Below are positions 1,556 to 16,667 of a DNA stretch of 56,992 bases, piece after piece. Numbering within the stretch: the first letter of the stretch is position 1; every line of letters starts with the position of its first letter. The DNA is taken from contig JAUXAP010000004.1 in the NCBI GenBank assembly GCA_030619865.1, positions 1 through 56,992 of the forward strand. Reading direction: 5' to 3'. A program made the translations under genes and the position numbers. Under the pieces are notes generated by a model, which was not told the DNA's origin, ran no database searches, and worked only from the letters and a program-made list of their open reading frames with translations. This DNA comes from Dehalococcoidia bacterium. Its GTDB lineage: Bacteria; Chloroflexota; Dehalococcoidia; Dehalococcoidales; JAUXAP01.

Positions 1556-2592
1556 ATAAAACCAAGGTGGGCATCATCAATGTTACCGGTTATGCCGGTG
1601 TCGAGCTGGCCCGACTATTGCACCAGCACCCACAGGTGGAGCTTACTTCAGTTACGGGACGGAGTGCTGCCGGGCAGAAGTTAGGCAAGGTTTTCCCCCA
1701 CCTAGCTGGCATAGACCTGACTATTGAAACTGAGCTAGACGAAGTTGATTTAGTCTTTTCGGCTATGCCCCATCAGGAGAGTGCTAAAGAGGTCATAACA
1801 TTACTCGACCGCGGTATTAAGGTGGTGGATATTAGTGCTGATTTCAGGCTGAAGGATGCCACGGAATACCAGAATTGGTATAGTTTTACTCACCCTGCGC
1901 CGCAACTGCTTAAGCAAGCAGTATATGGACTAACCGAACTATATCGGTCTCAGGTTGCCTCCGCCCGATTGGTGGCTAACCCTGGTTGTTATCCCACTGG
2001 GGCTATTCTGGCTTTAGCCCCGGTAGTCAAGGAAGGCCTAATTGAACCTGACATTATTATTGATAGCAAGTCTGGTGTATCCGGAGCCGGCAGAACCCTC
2101 AGCCTGCGAACGCATTTCTCAGAAGTTAATGAAGATGTTACTGCTTACGCCTTAGACGGTCATAGGCATTTACCTGAGATTGTCCAGGAGCTAAAGCTGC
2201 TTCGCCCTGAACAGCCGCTTTCGGTAACCTTTGTTCCCCATCTGATACCGATGACCAGAGGGATATTGACTACTTGCTATGCCCCCCTAGCTTCAGGCAA
2301 AGTCGCTGCTGGCAAGAAAGCGGCAGAAGAGCTAAGGCAGCTCTACTTGGACTTCTACAAGGATGAACCCTTCGTCAAAGTGGTAGAATCCCCTCCCCAC
2401 ACCAAACACACCTGGGGAAACAACCTGTGTCTTATTCACCCTACTATTGACCCCAGAACAGGGAGGCTAATCGTCATCAGTTGCCTTGATAATCTGGTTA
2501 AGGGAGCGGCCGGGCAAGCTGTACAGAACATGAACCTTATGCTCGGCCTGCCTGAGACTACTGGGCTTGAGGCATTGGCAATTTACCCTTGA
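1552..2592 (+). CDS. argC: N-acetyl-gamma-glutamyl-phosphate reductase
   Basis: TGYAGVEL, DISADFRL, VANPGCY, DNLVKGAAGQAVQNMN motifs; ATG at 1552 overlaps upstream stop. Confidence 0.97.
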   Translation: MNKTKVGIINVTGYAGVELARLLHQHPQVELTSVTGRSAAGQKLGKVFPHLAGIDLTIETELDEVDLVFSAMPHQESAKEVITLLDRGIKVVDISADFRLKDATEYQNWYSFTHPAPQLLKQAVYGLTELYRSQVASARLVANPGCYPTGAILALAPVVKEGLIEPDIIIDSKSGVSGAGRTLSLRTHFSEVNEDVTAYALDGHRHLPEIVQELKLLRPEQPLSVTFVPHLIPMTRGILTTCYAPLASGKVAAGKKAAEELRQLYLDFYKDEPFVKVVESPPHTKHTWGNNLCLIHPTIDPRTGRLIVISCLDNLVKGAAGQAVQNMNLMLGLPETTGLEALAIYP

Positions 2593-2603
2593 AATGAACT
2601 ACT

Positions 2604-3659
2604 TCAGGGCTTTTCTGGCTCAGCACCCTTAAGCAAAATATAATCAAACATTGTGCCCTTGGCTCCCCTGAGCTCCAGGCAGTCAACGATACCTGTATAT
2701 TTACCCCCTAATAACCCCTCACCAATGATGTATGCCCCCTCGGCAGCCTCCTTGGCTACCCTAGCCTTTCTCCCCACCTTTCGCACCTTTCCAAATTGGG
2801 AAAGCCTAGCCGTCAGGGTCTCGGCAATCTCCGGGATTCCGGAGAGCCGGCCCGAAAGCAAAATCTCTCTAGGCTTCTCCACACTAACCATCATCGCCGC
2901 TACTCCTTTGACTATGCTTTCCAAGAGCATATTCCAGGCTGCCTGATATTTATGATGCTCCTTAGCCAGCTCCTCGGGAGTTAAATCATCTTTGCCACTG
3001 GCATCCTTGGCACCACCGCTAAAGAGTACTATCCCGGGGAATTTCCCCAGGCGCACCGCTAGCTCAGAATCCATACTCCCCAGAGTGATGAAACCGGGAC
3101 CCCCTGAGGTCCCGCCTAAACCATCAACTATCTTCCCACCCTCAACACCGATTACCGCATTGAAGGCATAACCTACCTCCACCAGAATGAAAGAGGTCTC
3201 ACTATAGTCTATATCATAAAGCTCGGCCTGGTCCCTGATTGCTAAGGCGATACAACATACCTTATCAGCGGTGCCCATATCCATCTTGTTCGCTTTCCTA
3301 TAGGCAGGCACGGTTTGGAGGTGAATGACCCCGGGGGTGAAATAAACCGGGAAGCCTTCATCTTTCATCAATCTGATAACCATCCTGATGCCATCATATA
3401 ACGGAATACTCTTGTCATCAGGTACCATCAGGGTTAGTGCCCTTTCGGTCATATCTCTGATAGGGGTTACCGGTAGGCCATAACCAGAGGGGCCGACTAT
3501 CATATCCAACGGGAAGACACTTCTCACCGTATCCACCAGCACCTTGGGGTTTTGGGCAACATCAGGCACAGGCACAGAAGTATCCAGGATAATCTTTTCC
3601 CCATCCATACCAAAGAAATCGAAGCTTCCAGTCCCAGGGTCAATACCGATAACTCTCAT
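2604..3659 (-). CDS. DUF1464-family ASKHA (butyrate-kinase-like) protein
   Basis: N-terminal GIDPGT phosphate-1 motif, GPSGYG, NKMDMGTADK, KEAAEGA. Confidence 0.75.
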   Translation of the reverse strand: MRVIGIDPGTGSFDFFGMDGEKIILDTSVPVPDVAQNPKVLVDTVRSVFPLDMIVGPSGYGLPVTPIRDMTERALTLMVPDDKSIPLYDGIRMVIRLMKDEGFPVYFTPGVIHLQTVPAYRKANKMDMGTADKVCCIALAIRDQAELYDIDYSETSFILVEVGYAFNAVIGVEGGKIVDGLGGTSGGPGFITLGSMDSELAVRLGKFPGIVLFSGGAKDASGKDDLTPEELAKEHHKYQAAWNMLLESIVKGVAAMMVSVEKPREILLSGRLSGIPEIAETLTARLSQFGKVRKVGRKARVAKEAAEGAYIIGEGLLGGKYTGIVDCLELRGAKGTMFDYILLKGAEPEKP

Positions 3660-4697
3660 TTAACCCTCCTCCTTGCCGACTAATTTGAAACTCAAAGGGC
3701 AAACAGGGTCAGAAGCGAACCAGTCCCCGGTAAGGACAAAGGTTCTGGAGCGGCACCCTTTACAGTCTCCTAAATACTGGCAACTCTGACAATACCCAGT
3801 TCTGGTTTTCGGGTCTTTAAGCTGGGAGAGAAAGGGTGAGGAAGACACCTCGTCCCATATTTCACCAAGAGATTTCTCATTGACATTACCTAAAACCATC
3901 GGGGCAAAGCTACAAGGTTTAACATCACCATCAGCCTCAATGAAAAGATATTCACCAAAAATGCACGCTGTAGTAGAGGGAGTTACAATCCCGGTGCTCA
4001 CCGCTGGCATCTGGGCAGGAAGACCTCTCTCCTTCACTGTAGCCCAGAAGAATGGCTCATCGAAGAAGAACTCGACTCCTGTTTTCTGCGCCCCCTCACA
4101 GACAAGCTTGATAGTTTCCCCATATTCCTCAGGAGTGAGCAGCTCCTCAGCATAATTTTGACATGGCTTGAGTCCAATGAAAGTTATCTTTCCTACTCCA
4201 ATTGAAGCAGCTAACTCGAAAATGGCTGGTATTTCAGTATAGTTCCTCTTCAAAAGGGTGAAATTTATTGCCTCCAGAAGCCCTTCTCCGACACAATTAC
4301 GCGCTGCTTGAATCACCCTCTCAAAGTTGGCACCATTCCTTATCGCCTCATAGGTTGCTGGGGTGGCACCATCAATGCTTATCATTACCCTTACCCCCAA
4401 CTGTTTAAGGGTGGTAAGTATCTGGGGACTTAGCAACATACCGTTGGTAATTAGATGAGCCTCTAACTGCTTTCGCTGCATCACCTCTAATAACTCAAAT
4501 ATATCCTCCCGAAGAAGTGGTTCTCCTCCTTCAATGATAACCCAACTAGGTTCCAGTTCAGCTATCTCGGTTATAAGTTTTTTGGCTCTCTCGGTTGAGA
4601 GTTCCCCCTCAGGAAAGCCGCGACAGTGCCGGCAGCTCAGGTTACATTTTCCTGTTACCGCCCAATCTACAAAATAGGGAAATTGACTTTTATTCAA
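3660..4697 (-). CDS. Radical SAM/SPASM domain protein (PqqE/AhbD-like)
   Basis: CNLSCRHC, GGEPLLR, C-terminal CxxCxxxxxCxGC...DPVC SPASM cluster. Confidence 0.88.
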   Translation of the reverse strand: MNKSQFPYFVDWAVTGKCNLSCRHCRGFPEGELSTERAKKLITEIAELEPSWVIIEGGEPLLREDIFELLEVMQRKQLEAHLITNGMLLSPQILTTLKQLGVRVMISIDGATPATYEAIRNGANFERVIQAARNCVGEGLLEAINFTLLKRNYTEIPAIFELAASIGVGKITFIGLKPCQNYAEELLTPEEYGETIKLVCEGAQKTGVEFFFDEPFFWATVKERGLPAQMPAVSTGIVTPSTTACIFGEYLFIEADGDVKPCSFAPMVLGNVNEKSLGEIWDEVSSSPFLSQLKDPKTRTGYCQSCQYLGDCKGCRSRTFVLTGDWFASDPVCPLSFKLVGKEEG

Positions 4698-4798
4698 AGA
4701 ATACCCTCTTTCCTCAAAAAAGTATATCTGGTTACCAGAGGTAAAATCAAGCCAGCCTTTAGCTTAAAACTTGGTTCAGGGCCTGTTTGAGGTGTGGG

Positions 4799-5419
4799 CT
4801 AGCTGAAAAAGCGTAATATCACATCCCACCCCCAAACGGCAACCAGCAAGACTGAACCTACATAATTTAAGGTTCTGCCCAACCAGCAGGCAAGGACAAA
4901 CTTCCATAAGGGGAAGCGAAGGGCACCAGCAACCATCCCAGCTATATCAAAGAAGAACGGCACCATGGCATTAATAAAGATAGGTATAACTCCCCACCTC
5001 TTCATCCACCCCTCCATTCTTGAATATATTTTCCTGTTCTCTATAACACCACGACCACTGTAGCCCAACAGATAGCTGGTCATCTCCCCAATCCCTGCTC
5101 CTGCCCCACCAGCCAACCCCACAAAAATTGGACCAACTAACCCCGTAGCTGGATAGATAATAACACCTATAGCACAGAGTACCGGTAGAACTGTAATCGG
5201 CATAAGAATAGTAGCGTTCCCAATCATACTAAACAGAAAAGCACCCAAATAGCCGTAGTTTTTCAGCTCTTCAATCCTCGCTGGATCCCGCACAAAAAAG
5301 AAAAGACCAACACTGATAGCCACCACAAAAAGCACCGTTAGCAGGGGAGGGATGAGCTTTTTTGCCCGTTCTCTTTTACTCACCCCAACCTGTTTATTGT
5401 TGTTAATCATATTACTCAT
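4799..5419 (-). CDS. VTT/DedA (SNARE-associated, YqaA-like) membrane protein
   Basis: Hydrophobic; GAGIGEMTSYLLG and FDIAGMVAGALR motifs. Confidence 0.8.
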   Translation of the reverse strand: MSNMINNNKQVGVSKRERAKKLIPPLLTVLFVVAISVGLFFFVRDPARIEELKNYGYLGAFLFSMIGNATILMPITVLPVLCAIGVIIYPATGLVGPIFVGLAGGAGAGIGEMTSYLLGYSGRGVIENRKIYSRMEGWMKRWGVIPIFINAMVPFFFDIAGMVAGALRFPLWKFVLACWLGRTLNYVGSVLLVAVWGWDVILRFFS

Positions 5420-5465
5420 TATAGCGTTGCTGGCTAACTCTGTCTCTGTTATACTTTATTCGCGT

Positions 5466-5541
5466 GCCCCCATCGTCTAGAGGCCTAGGACACCGGCCTT
5501 TCAAGCCGGCAACACCGATTCGAATTCGGTTGGGGGCACCA
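5466..5541 (+). tRNA. tRNA-Glu(TTC)
   Basis: Cloverleaf; anticodon arm ccggc-ctTTCaa-gccgg; TTCGAAT T-loop; encoded CCA. Confidence 0.97.
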
Positions 5542-5556
5542 ATGATTTACTCTAAC

Positions 5557-6030
5557 TTAAAATTTGCCCTTTAGCTTCTTATACGTTTCAGCCAGGGCTT
5601 CATTAATTACCTTAGTATCAGAGAGCACCGGCATAAAATTAGTATCACCCTCCCATCGGGGCACAATGTGAGTATGAATATGCTTATCAATACCGGCTCC
5701 GGCTATTCTCCCCACATTCATTCCTATGTTAAAACCATCGGGGTTAAACACCTGCCTTAAAACCTTGACGCTTCGGCTAACTATTTCAATATGCTCGTGG
5801 AGCTCCTCATCAGTTAGCTCTTCCAGATTAGCTATGTGTCGGTAGGGGGCTATCATCAGGTGACCCGAGTTGTAGGGATAGCTATTCATAATGACGAAGT
5901 TTTTGTCTCCCCGATACAGGATATAGTTTGTAGCATCACTATTCTGCCCGGGTTTTTCACATAAAATACAGCCTTCCGGTTTCTCCATCTGGATATATTC
6001 TATACGCCATGGCGCCCAAATCTGCTTCAT
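5557..6030 (-). CDS. HIT family hydrolase (Ap4A hydrolase/phosphorylase type)
   Basis: WAPWR N-terminus, CILC, HIHTHIVPRW triad; AAGGAG before ATG 6030. Confidence 0.92.
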   Translation of the reverse strand: MKQIWAPWRIEYIQMEKPEGCILCEKPGQNSDATNYILYRGDKNFVIMNSYPYNSGHLMIAPYRHIANLEELTDEELHEHIEIVSRSVKVLRQVFNPDGFNIGMNVGRIAGAGIDKHIHTHIVPRWEGDTNFMPVLSDTKVINEALAETYKKLKGKF

Positions 6031-6161
6031 ATCATTCTCCTTACTGAGTAAGTTACTTATCACTATTTTAGACGGCTCCTTTCAGGAGGTCAAAGGGGGT
6101 AAAGCAATTTAGCTTGTTGTAAAATAGTTAACAATATGTCAATTGGTTGGTCAATAGGGAG

Positions 6162-6190
6162 TTGACAATAACTTGAGCAATCCGTAAAAT
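6162..6190 (+). promoter_or_regulatory. Sigma70-type promoter of the transposase remnant
   Basis: TTGACA-17-TAAAAT, then GGGAGG RBS and GTG at 6215. Confidence 0.7.
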
Positions 6191-6214
6191 TTACGTGACG
6201 GCTGGGAGGATAGC

Positions 6215-6451
6215 GTGAGCAGTGTGATAAAGAGAAGAAGGGACAAGCAGTTTGCCTCAACGTTGCTTGACCGTAGTCCGTCTGTGGAGAGGGTTTTTTG
6301 CAGAATGAAAAATCATAGGCGCCTCAACAATATTACTGTTAGGCGTCGTCGTAGGGTTACAGTTCATAGTCTGATTCCAGTGATTGTGACGCAGGCTATG
6401 GCCTTGGCATATCCTGATGCACCGAGAAACTGCATTCAACAAAATAGTTGA
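6215..6451 (+). pseudogene. Internally deleted DDE transposase (C-terminal catalytic-Glu helix retained)
   Basis: SVERVFCRMK matches the ExxFxxxK helix of IS4/IS5/IS1182-like transposases; only 78 aa, just inside the left TIR. Confidence 0.7.
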
Positions 6452-6489
6452 CAAAATGACAATAATAGTATATAAGTAAAGTAACAGAA

Positions 6490-6561
6490 TAAGAAGAAAA
6501 CCGCTTTCCAGAGCGGTTTCCGGTTTGCCATCTATAAGGTGTGTTATATTATGCGCTTACT
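6490..6561 (-). ncRNA. Predicted ~70-nt antisense RNA to the TA operon leader
   Basis: Minus-strand TTGACA(6596-6591)-17-TACTAT(6573-6568) promoter and downstream hairpin aaaccgct/agcggttt (6498-6519) followed by a U-rich tail on the minus strand. Confidence 0.5.
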
Positions 6562-6631
6562 AATAATATAGTACACCCTGGGTGGCGTTTTGTCAAGTCC
6601 CCCGCCTACCCGTGGGTGGGGAGGCGTACAG

Positions 6632-7153
6632 ATGGCCGACATAGACTTTATGTTTAATCGAGCAAAAGCTATTGAGGTGATACTATATCTAGCTAGTAAG
6701 GTGTCAAATTCTGATATCTATGGTATTTGCAAATTACTCTATTTGGTAGATAAGACTAACCTTGAAAAGTACGGACGATTTATTTTTGGCGAATCATACG
6801 TTGCTATGCAGGAGGGTGCTACGCCATCAAATGCCTATGATTTATTAAAGGAGGCAAGTGAATCATCCGTAACTGGCTTAAGCGTTGATACGAATCAAGT
6901 CGTCGCCTTACGTGAGGCGAACTTAGATTATTTAAGTGAATCTGACGTAGAGTGTTTAGACCAGATTATCAGCATATATGGTAAAGCACCTAATTGGGTT
7001 AGAAGAAGAGATACCCATGATGATGCTTGGAAGAAAGCTTGGGCGAGTAGAGGAAATATGGGAAGTGTCAGAATCCCAGTTGAGAGTATCGCAAAACTTC
7101 TTTCTGACTCAGATGATATTATTAGTCACCTGTCTAACTCAGATGACGGATAG
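6632..7153 (+). CDS. Panacea-domain (DUF4065/SocA-like) antitoxin
   Basis: KAIEVILYL, KLLYLVDK..LEKYGRFIFGESYVAMQEGATPS..YD, THDDAW; GGAGG before ATG 6632. Confidence 0.85.
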   Translation: MADIDFMFNRAKAIEVILYLASKVSNSDIYGICKLLYLVDKTNLEKYGRFIFGESYVAMQEGATPSNAYDLLKEASESSVTGLSVDTNQVVALREANLDYLSESDVECLDQIISIYGKAPNWVRRRDTHDDAWKKAWASRGNMGSVRIPVESIAKLLSDSDDIISHLSNSDDG

Positions 7154-7158
7154 ATATC

Positions 7159-7527
7159 ATGCCGGATGTATGGCATTTTTTCCATGTCAAGAATTGTCCT
7201 CATACGAATCCCCCCAAAGATAAATTTACTGTTATTGTTTGTAAAGACTCAGAGTGCATGGGTTTCTTCGTAAATTCACATATCAATAAGTTTATCCAAA
7301 AAAGACCCAGTATGCTAGCATGTCAGGTCGCAGTAAAAGCATCAGATTATTGGTTCTTGTCCAGTGACTCATATCTAGATTGTAGCCAACTATACCCTTT
7401 TGACGATATTCTATTGGTAGATGGGCGTGGCTCCGTTACCGAACAAACAAAAGCTCAAATTAAACAAGTAGTACTTAATGCCAAGACAATTGAGAAACGC
7501 TACCAGAAGTTAATTTCTGAAGGGTAA
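7159..7527 (+). CDS. Putative toxin partner of Panacea antitoxin (possibly PemK/MazF-like fold)
   Basis: 122 aa, 5 bp after the antitoxin stop, inside the same element; PPKDKFTVIV, FFVNS, FL..DSYLDC pattern. Confidence 0.55.
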   Translation: MPDVWHFFHVKNCPHTNPPKDKFTVIVCKDSECMGFFVNSHINKFIQKRPSMLACQVAVKASDYWFLSSDSYLDCSQLYPFDDILLVDGRGSVTEQTKAQIKQVVLNAKTIEKRYQKLISEG

Positions 7528-7673
7528 GCTAACTTGAGCAACTTTATTGGTTATCGGGTGCATTTCGCAACAAGCTAAATTGTAAAAAAACAGCTATCCT
7601 CTATAGTTACATTAGCTATGAAATTTGACCTGTTACAATTGAACAGTAGCAATGAGCAGCCTAGAGAAACAAA

Positions 7674-9515
7674 TTGACCCATCTCAATGACATACTGCAT
7701 AAGGTTACCAAGCCCGCTCGCTATACCGGTGGCGAGTGGAATAGCGTTGTCAAAGATTGGGACAAAACCCCTATCAAGATAGCCCTTGCCTACCCTGATT
7801 TATATGAAATAGGCATGTCTAACATGGCTTTGCCTATCCTCTACGACCTACTTAATAGCCAGCCGGATGTTCTGGCCGAAAGGGTCTACGCCCCGTGGGT
7901 AGATATGGAAGCAGTAACGCGCTCAGAAGGTATCCCCCTGTTTAGCCTTGAATCCAAGCACCCACTAAAGGATTTTGATATTATCGGTTTCTCCCTAGGC
8001 TATGAACTCACCTATACCAATGTATTGAATATGCTTGACCTAGCTCAAATACCAGTCCTAGCCTCAGAGAGGAATGATTCCCACCCAGTAGTAATAGCCG
8101 GCGGTAGCTGCGCACTCAACCCTGAGCCTATGGCCGACTTTATTGACTTTTTCGCAATTGGGGACGGAGAAGAAGTGCTGCTTGAGTTACTTGATAGCTT
8201 CCGAGATTGGAAAAGACAGGGCAAGGAAGCCTCCAAAAAACAACTATTGCACCAAGTGGCTACTATCCCTGGCATCTATGTACCTAGCCTATATCAAGTG
8301 GAATACCAAGCCAACGGTTTATTTAAAAGCATTGCCCCCACTGTGACTCAAGCTCAACCTAGCATTCAACGGCGACTGGTGACCAAGCTGCCTCCTCCGG
8401 TCACTAAACCAGTAGTTCCTTACATTGAGGTAATTCACGACCGTGGGGCAATAGAGATTCAGCGGGGTTGTGGCCGTGGCTGCCGTTTCTGCCAGGCAGG
8501 GACTATATATCGCCCGGTGCGCGAGCGCCCTCAGCCGGAAGTGCTTCAAGCAGTAGCAGAGCTTATTAATAACTGCGGTTACAATGAGATATCTTTAGTT
8601 TCATTAAGCACCAGTGACTACCCTGAAATTGACAAGCTGGTAGCTAGCTTATTCCACCGTTATCAAAACTATAATCTTGTCCTATCACTGCCCAGCCTCC
8701 GCATTGATAGCTCCTCAGTAAAATTGGTGGACTCTCTTCCCTCCCACAGGAAGACAGGGCTCACCTTCGCTCCGGAAGCAGGAAGCGAGAGACTACGACG
8801 AATCATAAATAAGAACACCCATGAAGATGAAATCCTAGAAACGACTGCCACCGCGTTTGATAGGGGTTGGACAAGCCTCAAGCTATATTTCATGCTCGGC
8901 TTGCCCACAGAAACCATTGACGATATAGGGGACATCGTTCAACTAGTAAACAAGATTCGCTCATTGGGCAGAAAAGCTAAAGGGCGAAGACCCCAGCTAA
9001 GAATCAGCCTATCCACCTTTGTCCCTAAACCGCATACGCCCTTTCAGTGGGTAGCCCAAGAAAGTGAACAAGGGTTAAGCTCTAAACATGAACTCCTTAA
9101 GCAGGGGTTGCGCCAAAAAGGGATAAGGCTATCCTGGCAAGACCCTAAGGTCAGCCTGCTTGAGGCAGCATTATCACGAGGAGATAGGCGGTTAGGTAAG
9201 GTTATCTATCGGGCCTGGGAGCTGGGCTGCACCTTTGATGCCTGGAATGAACACTTTAACTACGAAAACTGGTCTCGCGCTTTTGAAGAGGCCGGTCTTG
9301 AACCCGGCTTCTATGCCCAACGGGAACGCTCCCTAGACGAACTCCTCCCCTGGGCTCATATTGATGTGGGGGTAACTTCTGCTTTCCTGCAGCGAGAATA
9401 TCAGCGTGCTTTAGAGGGTAAAGAAACCCTTGACTGCCGTCATCAAGCTTGTAATGTCTGCGGACTGGAACACTGGCAACCAGATTGTCAACAAAAGCAT
9501 CGGAGACTCAGCTAA
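7674..9515 (+). CDS. B12-binding radical SAM protein (TIGR03960-like)
   Basis: [40 protein letters not shown]. Confidence 0.9.
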
Positions 9516-16134: not shown

Positions 16135-16203
16135 CTCCTTATTACCTCAAATTATATAGGCTAGTCTGTAATTAGACAAATGAGGAAATTTCACCTTAGA
16201 TAG

Positions 16204-16231
16204 AGAGGGTAGATTTCTGATTCTACCCTCT
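16204..16231. terminator. Hairpin downstream of the nuclease gene
   Basis: agagggtaga / tctaccctct 10-bp perfect stem. Confidence 0.5.
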
Positions 16232-16267
16232 ATCAATATCTAGCCAATCTCAGTAGCATTGAAGAAG

Positions 16268-16543
16268 TTACTGCCCATAGCCATACCGTATCATAATATC
16301 GTTAACGTTTGTGCTGTTTAGCCATACTTCTGCAAGAGTTCGCCCATATGAGTCAATAGCTACTTGTTCATAGGTGATACGCTTATTTGGAATGAGGCTT
16401 TCCAATATAGTCTTTGCTCGTTGCCCACGTGACGTGCTTATAGGTGGAGCGCTTACTCGAGTAAGGCGTATTCGGACCTCCGTGTTAGTGACAAATGTAT
16501 CACCGTCTATGACAAGAACACAGATTGCACTTTGTTTAACCAT
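16268..16543 (-). CDS. Thermonuclease (SNase) family protein, short and possibly inactive
   Basis: VIDGDT, RIRL, DSYGRTLAEV, NVN..MI..GY; own promoter TTGACA-16-TATAAT (16592-16565) and GGAGGT RBS. Confidence 0.8.
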   Translation of the reverse strand: MVKQSAICVLVIDGDTFVTNTEVRIRLTRVSAPPISTSRGQRAKTILESLIPNKRITYEQVAIDSYGRTLAEVWLNSTNVNDIMIRYGYGQ

Positions 16544-16614
16544 AATCCACCTCCCTTAATGCGAATTATACTATTCTAATAGGTAGTGTCAAGATATGGT
16601 TGGCAATACAATGA

Positions 16615-16631
16615 GCATTTCGCAACAAGCT
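16615..16631. repeat. Second copy of the element right end
   Basis: gcatttcgcaacaagct is identical to 7560-7576. Confidence 0.75.
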
Positions 16632-16667
16632 GAAATGGGGACCATCGTTAAAAAGGGAAATAGTTAG

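Follow-up and report, generated by a model that had tools for sequence, protein, structure and literature searches.

Insertion sequences (ISs) that carry passenger genes provide the closest described parallels to the element analyzed here, which occupies positions 6110–7577 of contig JAUXAP010000004.1 from a Dehalococcoidia bacterium; the 56,992-nucleotide stretch of that contig that we analyzed is called the window. The IS5 subgroup of the IS5 family has a single DDE transposase of ~330 amino acids (aa) with DUF772 and DDE_Tnp_1 domains, short terminal inverted repeats (TIRs), and a 4-bp target duplication. MIC231 of Bacillus cereus is a mobile insertion cassette (MIC) derived from IS231, for which mobilization in trans has been demonstrated (PMC6199540, PMC3129680), and IS copies with passenger genes have been described as transporter ISs (tISs) (PMC3129680). 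Some Tn3-family transposons carry toxin-antitoxin (TA) passengers, which have been proposed to stabilize the element (Lima-Mendez 2020, PMC7157771). Among TA systems, those with a Panacea-domain antitoxin (PanATs) are known to partner with PemK/MazF-like toxins (Kurata 2022, PMC8832971) and are often found near transposases (PMC8832971). We conclude, with a probability of about 0.85, that the window element descends from an IS5/IS1182-superfamily IS that carries cargo and is confined to Dehalococcoidia, and that it is now non-autonomous and probably a fossil, a reading built on ends, a target duplication, an empty site, a family, a transposase remnant, a gene pair, and a toxin fold that were each shown.

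The first-pass annotation of this stretch, made from the letters alone, had read the ends as inverted repeats, and this held: the arms at 6105–6125 and 7562–7582 are 21 nt each and 90% complementary. The 17-bp family TIR consensus, TAGCTTGTTGCGAAATG, matches the window three times at ≤3 mismatches, namely at 6110–6126 (3 mismatches), 7561–7577 (0), and 16616–16632 (1), against 0.12 matches expected from dinucleotide shuffles, none of which (0/100) gave three. The left TIR, TAGCTTGTTGTAAAATA (6110–6126, plus strand), agrees with the consensus at 14/17 positions, while the right TIR (7561–7577, minus strand) is the same as the consensus at 17/17. The transposon thus delimited is 1468 bp long and is flanked by a 4-bp target duplication, AATT, with its left copy at 6106–6109, corresponding to the single AATT of the empty-site contigs, and its right copy at 7578–7581, where it coincides with the −35 element (TTGTAA, 7580) from which a downstream metallo-beta-lactamase (MBL)-fold gene would be transcribed.

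These limits and the AATT duplication follow from empty alleles in Logan contigs and from three relatives. Contigs from four marine-sediment and related runs were placed on window positions 5900–7800. One contig of run X2 links 6109 to 7584 via GTA alone, and further contigs of runs X1, X2, and X3 link 6099 to 7584 via GTAAAGCAATTGTA; all of the joined contigs give ...TAAAGCAATTGTAAAAAA, and the empty site ...GCAATTGTAAAA (CAATTG) was seen in the contigs of three runs. Flank homology with relatives ends at 6109–6112, and the HIT-proximal spacer runs uninterrupted in genomes G015 (...CAATTGTAAAAAA), G031 (...TAATTGTAAAAAA), and G022 (...CGGTTGTAAAAAA), where the same place reads CAATTG, TAATTG, and CGGTTG, respectively. 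An empty site between the HIT gene and the radical-SAM gene, which the first-pass annotation had put forward as a check, therefore exists in both contigs and relatives. The form expected for it was different: the palindrome CAATTTAAATTG, or equivalently a duplication of the dinucleotide TA, is arithmetically possible but was rejected; it finds no support in either set of empty alleles, which show CAATTG and a 4-bp AATT.

The ends belong to an IS family, which we surveyed in 363 genomes of the order. A 16-mer of the end (≤1 mismatch) was present in 50 of the 363 genomes, with 68 matches compared to 7 for the reversed control. Across 185,579 species genomes the exact 17-mer occurred at 71 loci, 33 of them labelled Dehalococcoidia, -ales, or -aceae; the remaining 38 were scattered over unrelated taxa, at or below the ~69 chance matches calculated for 596 Gb, and by this distribution the lineage is confined to Dehalococcoidia. 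Inverted end pairs on the same contig enclose 346 to 4771 bp. Intact transposases lie inside the TIR pairs of G260 (3244 bp, 333 aa), G059 (4571 bp, 340 aa), and JAUWYE...111 (4771 bp, 337 aa), and locus L104 is another element with an intact transposase, so the proposal of a non-autonomous, passenger-carrying derivative of a DDE-type IS was borne out by ends that recur around intact transposases in relatives. Only five of the 363 genomes (G260, G059, G024, G238, and G341) held a close full-length transposase, and most ends must therefore belong to non-autonomous or decayed copies.

The full-length transposases of the family are 333–340 aa long and combine DUF772 with DDE_Tnp_1. In Pfam, those of G059 and G024 matched DDE_Tnp_1 at E values of 8e-22 and 1.5e-25 (78–91 bits, cut-off 23) and DUF772 at 32–37 bits (cut-off 23.1), and the transposase of JAUWYE...111 also exceeded the cut-offs for both domains. 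The G260 and G059 transposases fell under every NCBIfam cut-off for IS5, IS1182, IS982, IS4, and IS1634, the best scores being 106 bits against 270 for IS1182, 84.5 against 110 for IS5_3, and 79.8 against 140 for IS5_4. The parent of the window element is thus an unnamed lineage of the IS5/IS1182 superfamily, and among the matches listed in our searches of an open-access library there was no paper on this IS lineage or on TA-carrying IS5-type elements in Dehalococcoidia. Perfect 4-bp direct repeats flank seven of nine family TIR pairs; the duplicated word is AATT in four (window, G059, G337, and L085), ATTA in G260, AAAA in G252, and AGAT in JAUWYE...111, and the AATT duplications usually sit within CAATT. 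The two pairs without a clean duplication, in G029 and G072, have divergent right tips. The earlier suggestion that the element targets palindromes therefore survives as a preference for a 4-bp A/T-rich word, AATT in 4/7 clean pairs, and not for a 12-bp palindrome.

The family's decay products include remnants, MIC-like forms, and forms resembling MITEs, or miniature inverted-repeat transposable elements. One transposase-free member, L085 (1659 bp), retains cargo, both ends, and a duplication. The MITE-like members span 346–746 bp (L073 in G029:C5, L074 in G072:C65, L075 in G252:C80, and L076 in G337:C12), and in those of G029 and G072 an intact left repeat is fused straight to the last ~10 transposase codons. 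We also observed several independent deletions that keep no more than the first 1–3 bases (TAG) of the left repeat and extend into the transposase gene (L014 5415–5440, L015 1100–1115, protein P0043, and the X1 joint 6361/7584). Two of these end at one inner point, equivalent to window position 6361, and one of the two lies beside the opposite flank, which suggests that such deletions are driven by microhomology or initiated by transposase, and that both orientations have occurred at this site.

Within the window element, what is left of the transposase is a 3′ remnant at 6281–6436 (plus strand; residues ~275–332 of 333–340), detected by tblastn and by blastn at 79–80% identity to G260, G028, and G100. 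Nucleotide similarity to all other family members is restricted to the TIRs and this segment. The remnant keeps the E(6)K part of the signature, and the arginine four residues before the glutamate has become serine. It is read as part of a 78-aa open reading frame (ORF) at 6215–6451 (plus strand), made up of ~22 novel N-terminal codons and the last ~53 transposase codons, without either catalytic aspartate. In a BLASTP alignment free of gaps, ORF residues 10–75 paired with the 66 C-terminal residues of the G260 transposase (45/66 identical, E 2e-30), which confirms the transposase similarity first noted from the letters; the Pfam match, to DDE_Tnp_1_6, was weaker (E 4.5e-4, 20.9 bits) and under the cut-off of 25.1. 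Codons 23–75 share 79% nucleotide identity with the G260 gene, with 7, 4, and 23 differences at the first, second, and third positions of the 53 codons, and codons 10–22 share 41% and are not homologous. Ahead of the ORF stands a sigma-70-like promoter (6162–6190, plus strand; TTGACA-17-TAAAAT), followed by GGGAGG 5 nt before the GTG start at 6215. The promoter had been called perfect; it is near consensus, at 11/12. A 13-nt identity, TTGACAATAACTT, is shared with the promoter region of the G059 transposase, for which ~0.3 chance occurrences were calculated, so that it is a hint only.

The first-pass annotation had the ORF joining a short N-terminus in frame to a DDE transposase C-terminus, and the two halves of that claim fared differently. 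The C-terminal half is the transposase 3′ end (codons 23–75), but the N-terminal half comes from antisense DNA of an XRE-family gene. We considered a transposase N-terminus joined to its own C-terminus and rejected it, as the first 22 residues are unlike the N-termini of the G260, G059, and G024 transposases and codons 10–22 show the 41% identity given above. A fragment of an XRE-family gene tail, read antisense by the ORF, lies at 6231–6275 (minus strand) and is 91% identical over 45 nt to G018:C7 2716–2760 (E 1.2e-11), a match that widens to 85% over 60 nt. In G018 the match runs antisense to the final codons and 3′ untranslated region of a 135-aa XRE-family gene, which heads a cluster resembling the cargo of G028; the other two members encode a protein of 154 aa and a HEXXH protein of 692 aa with a dCTP-deaminase-type end. 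At the junction, 6271–6281, both sources share the microhomology GT[TC]TG[CT]GGAGA. The ORF is thus a chimera created by deletion. Across the 363 genomes, the G018 XRE-tail match was the only real one for the left module 6110–6285. In G028 and G059 an XRE gene lies nearest the right repeat and points toward it, so the left end of the window element looks like such an end inverted.

Public protein data hold 21 further short ORFs (50–116 aa) that end in ...HSLIPVIVTQAMALAFPDTPRNC, with unrelated N-termini and variable truncation points. Because the N-termini are unrelated, we read these ORFs as the outcome of repeated 5′ truncation, not as a conserved mini-protein. The G028 and G070 copies hold in-frame stops. 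The element also contains internal direct repeats: a 23-nt pair (20/23) at 6121–6143 and 6441–6463 ties the sub-terminal left end to DNA past the transposase remnant, its second copy (plus strand) overlapping the ORF stop codon and a TTGACA, and the exact 12-mer TAACTTGAGCAA occurs at 6169–6180, in the spacer of the left promoter, and at 7530–7541, just past the toxin stop. These repeats could be binding sites or recombination scars.

The passengers of the window element are a Panacea TA pair, as the first-pass annotation had recognized. PanA, a 173-aa Panacea-domain antitoxin (6632–7153, plus strand), matched SocA_Panacea (PF13274) at E 2.4e-14 and 54.6 bits, well over the cut-off of 25.7, and scored 16 bits against the NCBIfam SocA equivalog, short of its 190. 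The second gene starts 5 nt past the panA stop and encodes a 122-aa protein (7159–7527, plus strand) without a match in Pfam (including PemK_toxin), NCBIfam, PHROG, or PADLOC; PADLOC likewise returned no match for PanA. Its family comprises 22 members, this protein and 21 relatives, all annotated as 'hypothetical'. The AlphaFold (AF2) model of the protein (predicted local distance difference test, pLDDT, 90.9; predicted template-modelling score, pTM, 0.82) had as its top Foldseek match a MazF chain, 4mzp_B (E 4.7e-6, probability 1.00, template-modelling (TM) score 0.69). Foldseek gave 71 matches in the PDB at E ≤ 0.001, and the top ones listed were MazF, MoxT, and YdcE chains with TM scores of 0.62–0.69 and 13–18% identity; a protein language-model look-up also pointed to MazF. 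The protein is thus predicted to be a MazF by its modelled fold, not by sequence membership, and such a toxin would probably cleave RNA.

A complex of PanA and the toxin was predicted with scores of 0.87, 0.87, and 0.88 in three runs, compared to 0.20 for the best control, with contacts agreeing at ≥98% and partner pLDDT values of at least 92. Of 157 solved complexes, 116 attain this mark, as do 2 of 215 mismatched pairs; these counts are rough only, because our own alignments were used. The modelled complex supports, rather than demonstrates, binding between the two proteins. Upstream of panA, a promoter-like site (TTGCCA-16-TATTAT, 10/12; plus strand, 6525–6552 within 6525–6577) overlaps a palindrome with 15-nt arms (6538–6552 and 6563–6577), which by its sequence and position is likely the operator of the TA pair. 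On the minus strand of the same region (window 6486–6596), a second promoter-like site at 6596–6568 (10/12) faces a terminator-like hairpin with a T run at 6521–6496. A minus-strand RNA of ~70 nt, antisense to the panA leader, could be encoded here; Rfam gave no match for 6486–6596.

The same pair occurs outside the IS family. A homologue of the toxin was found at 27 metagenome loci, and at all 27 it had a PanA homologue directly upstream, cut by the contig end in five cases and showing 56–71% identity where it was not cut. Family ends (≤3 mismatches) were found at none of these 27 loci, nor was a family transposase (0/27). Homology to the loci starts at 6630–6632 at both the protein and nucleotide level, and nucleotide homology is confined to the coding region, 6630–7515. 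As the pair is present at every locus and the IS ends at none, we regard it as a separable cassette that was acquired by the element. The TA pair carried by the G100 member of the IS family is not close kin of the one in the window, its PanA being 19% identical and its toxin giving no significant match.

Passengers vary widely across the family. In 11 distinct elements, represented by 13 locus rows of which two are duplicates, similarity ends 1–7 codons past ...PR(N/D/R)C at the transposase stop, and unrelated DNA then extends to the right repeat, forming a downstream cargo slot. A cargo-free form was seen in a contig of run X1, in which 6429 is joined to 7559 via 13 nt and ...RNCVF-stop abuts the right repeat. 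PanA with a small ORF fills the slot in G100 and L112, HicA/HicB in G070, and HicB in L109, and other members carry DUF3800 (G260), SIR2 (L083), a type-I-enzyme N-terminal domain (HSDR_N_2; L085), or NYN (L113). G059 carries a phosphoribosyltransferase and, like L104, DUF488 with a 260–266-aa protein, which in G059 matches the candidate defence system PDC-M19A/B (1.1e-65). The cargo of G028 consists of a dCTP-deaminase-like protein, a HEXXH protein, and an XRE regulator; ArsR regulators are also found among family cargo, and larger members have passengers on both sides of the transposase. The survey covered the first 3 kb inside each end, and at solo ends some ORFs are host genes, hence no proportion is given.

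The XRE and HEXXH genes form a conserved cluster, in L021 (G018:C7) at 2742–5912 and in L014 (G028:C30) at 2183–5114, comprising an XRE regulator, a 154–164-aa protein, a HEXXH protein, and a dCTP-deaminase-like domain (called as DCD by Pfam in G028 and recognized in G018 by visual reading of the sequence). The HEXXH and dCTP-deaminase-like parts are one fused 692-aa protein in G018 and are split in G028. PADLOC found nothing for the DCD-like and HEXXH proteins, and the cluster is a candidate nucleotide-depletion defence system.

Several insertion sites recur. G100 and L085 are different elements that share the junction GGTCAATT|TAG, which adjoins the CIRCE operator of hrcA and an MBL gene. 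The mazG|fmt spacer holds a complete 4.6-kb member in G059 and, in the window, another remnant of this IS family, with one end only (16140–16632), whose right repeat has one mismatch at its tip and is preceded by a 91-aa staphylococcal-nuclease-like ORF (16268–16543, minus strand; NucI/EcnA-like, E 4e-7, sub-cut-off). The HIT|MBL junction of G028 is occupied by an element of 3.4 kb whose cargo is different. We tentatively suggest that the lineage may be a dedicated shuttle for TA and defence cassettes, with a slot at the transposase stop, repeated insertion at a few AATT sites in promoter regions (HIT|MBL-rSAM, hrcA|MBL, and mazG|fmt), and contents that are swapped, though we think it rather more probable that it is not. 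Each insertion would regenerate its target, and serial insertions and deletions would exchange the contents of such a site. If this were true, these streamlined genomes would hold tiny exchangeable defence islets, whose turnover the window copy would show at a single moment.

In the history that we favour for the window copy, the element inserted into a CAATTG that lay past the HIT gene, ahead of the promoter from which an MBL-fold gene upstream of the radical-SAM gene is read. At least one deletion then removed ~80% of the transposase gene and fused its last ~53 codons to the antisense scrap of an XRE gene, so that a 78-aa ORF arose by chance downstream of a strong promoter. The left 170 bp may derive from a second, oppositely oriented family member that inserted at the regenerated AATT site before a deletion fused the two. 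The passenger is an operon of Panacea antitoxin and MazF-fold toxin with its own palindromic promoter region, and the pair may keep the relic in place by addiction or may act in phage defence. Its own assembly (G000) contains the element once, and a full-length transposase query of this 58%-complete genome matched only 6257–6436; the element is probably immobile in this genome now. Since neither an intact transposase nor a second copy was found in an assembly of that completeness, we lean, within our reading of a decayed IS, toward a fossil decaying in place and held by its TA pair.

Several points weigh against this history. At 58% completeness, an intact transposase or more copies could lie in the unassembled part of the genome, and mobilization in trans would be possible. 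The two TIRs and the duplication have survived intact, which is what an element that can still be mobilized would show. As no NCBIfam IS-family cut-off was reached, the family assignment holds at the superfamily level only. The segment 6127–6230, with the promoter, ribosome-binding site, and start codon, has no relative in the 363 genomes, its four weak matches (E 0.003–0.005) lying in unrelated coding regions. The HIT|MBL site is filled by other cargo in G028, and apparently in the opposite orientation in other contigs, which would fit either a single old insertion whose contents were exchanged later or several insertions made independently.

The most serious competitor is that the copy is a still-mobilizable insertion cassette, which arrived as the present 1468-bp unit and was moved in trans by an intact transposase of the family. 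The two TIRs with their perfect AATT duplication fit this well, as does the existence of transposase-free members with ends and duplications, both with cargo (L085) and in MITE-like form (346–746 bp). We nevertheless judge it unlikely, given that the partial assembly yielded no second copy or intact transposase, that the same deletion junction or left-end module appears in 0 of 363 genomes, that the family ends are absent from all 27 metagenome loci with the same TA pair, and that the left TIR departs from consensus at 3/17 positions. Another rival gives the 78-aa ORF a function of its own, as a truncated transposase that could inhibit the family transposase in a dominant-negative way, say, or regulate it by binding DNA. 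Its strong promoter and Shine-Dalgarno sequence, the intact last ~53 codons with mostly third-position differences from G260 (7/4/23), and the many public short ORFs with the same C-terminus speak for such a role. The third-position bias is, however, explained by time spent inside functional transposases alone, the 21 short relatives vary in N-terminus and truncation point as random decay predicts, and the in-frame stops of the G028 and G070 copies point the same way. The 22 N-terminal codons drawn from antisense XRE-gene DNA argue against a purpose-built mini-transposase or regulator, and we consider this role quite improbable. A still simpler account would dispense with a mobile element altogether, taking the repeat as a chance one around an ordinary chromosomal TA pair in a variable intergenic region. 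The short arms, of which the left is imperfect, agree with that account, but it is hardly credible beside precise empty-site contigs, ends in 50/363 related genomes with matching duplications and transposases, and a match count that 0/100 shuffles reach. The decayed cargo-carrying IS accordingly remains our preferred reading.

The genome assembly that holds the element comprises 823,101 bases in 27 contigs. The element is flanked by a HIT-family gene (5557–6063, minus strand) and a B12-type radical-SAM gene (7674–9515), an adjacency common to many genomes of the order. An MBL-fold hydrolase gene lies between the site and the radical-SAM gene in G028, G031, and G001 and, judging from extra spacing, probably also in G015 and G033. 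The insertion struck the −35 hexamer of this gene's promoter. In the window the gene itself is deleted (7580–7678), leaving the promoter, an ATG (7619), and about 50 nt, and G022 shows a comparable partial loss. A tRNA-Glu (UUC) gene at 5466–5541 lies past the 3′ end of the HIT gene, and its 3′ part is conserved across the order; it is on the far side of the HIT gene from the element and is not the insertion site. An Rfam scan of 5300–7800 found nothing except this tRNA.

Mobile-element relics of this type are well documented and fairly ordinary. The value of the locus is that it gives a clean, boundary-resolved case, with ends, duplication, and empty allele, of a cargo-carrying IS decaying to a transposase-less cassette with a TA pair. 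It also defines a previously unnamed IS lineage of uncultured marine-sediment Dehalococcoidia, whose 17-bp ends offer a marker for small defence and TA islets in metagenome-assembled genomes, and it adds a new MazF-fold toxin family, as modelled, to the partners of Panacea. Current ideas are not overturned by these results, which are of use for annotation and for the study of defence-gene exchange in small genomes.

Compared with the IS5 subgroup, the family has a similar transposase size, the same DUF772 and DDE_Tnp_1 domains, short TIRs, and a 4-bp duplication, but it differs in scoring under the NCBIfam cut-offs for IS5 and IS1182 and in routinely carrying cargo. Its TIR sequence is also unlike what we take to be the TIR of IS5. 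The gene pair resembles PanATs with PemK/MazF-like toxins (PMC8832971) in pairing a Panacea antitoxin with an adjacent small toxin that lacks a CDD/Pfam match and is predicted to be MazF-like, while the window's own toxin family is not named in the portions of that paper's text available to us. As in the Tn3-family transposons with TA passengers described in the source cited above, a TA pair sits inside a DDE transposon; the transposase superfamily and mechanism are different, there is no resolvase, and the pair occupies a slot past the transposase stop. The intact members (G260, G059, JAUWYE...111, and L104) resemble tISs as outlined in the cited account, being IS-sized with one transposase and unrelated passengers inside the TIRs, whereas the window copy lacks a transposase and the family's passengers are mostly of TA or defence type.

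In build, the window copy is comparable to MIC231, as far as the cited descriptions go. The structure is MIC-like, in that IS-type inverted repeats flank coding sequences without a functional transposase gene, 53–66 C-terminal codons being left. Unlike MIC231, it occurs once and retains the 3′ end of a transposase gene, its parent belongs to the IS5/IS1182 superfamily and not to IS4/IS231, and its mobility in trans is only a candidate property. Like MIC231, it has two IS-type inverted repeats that enclose passengers but no working transposase, a short piece of conserved IS-derived sequence close to one of the ends, and a family of cassettes with different passengers.

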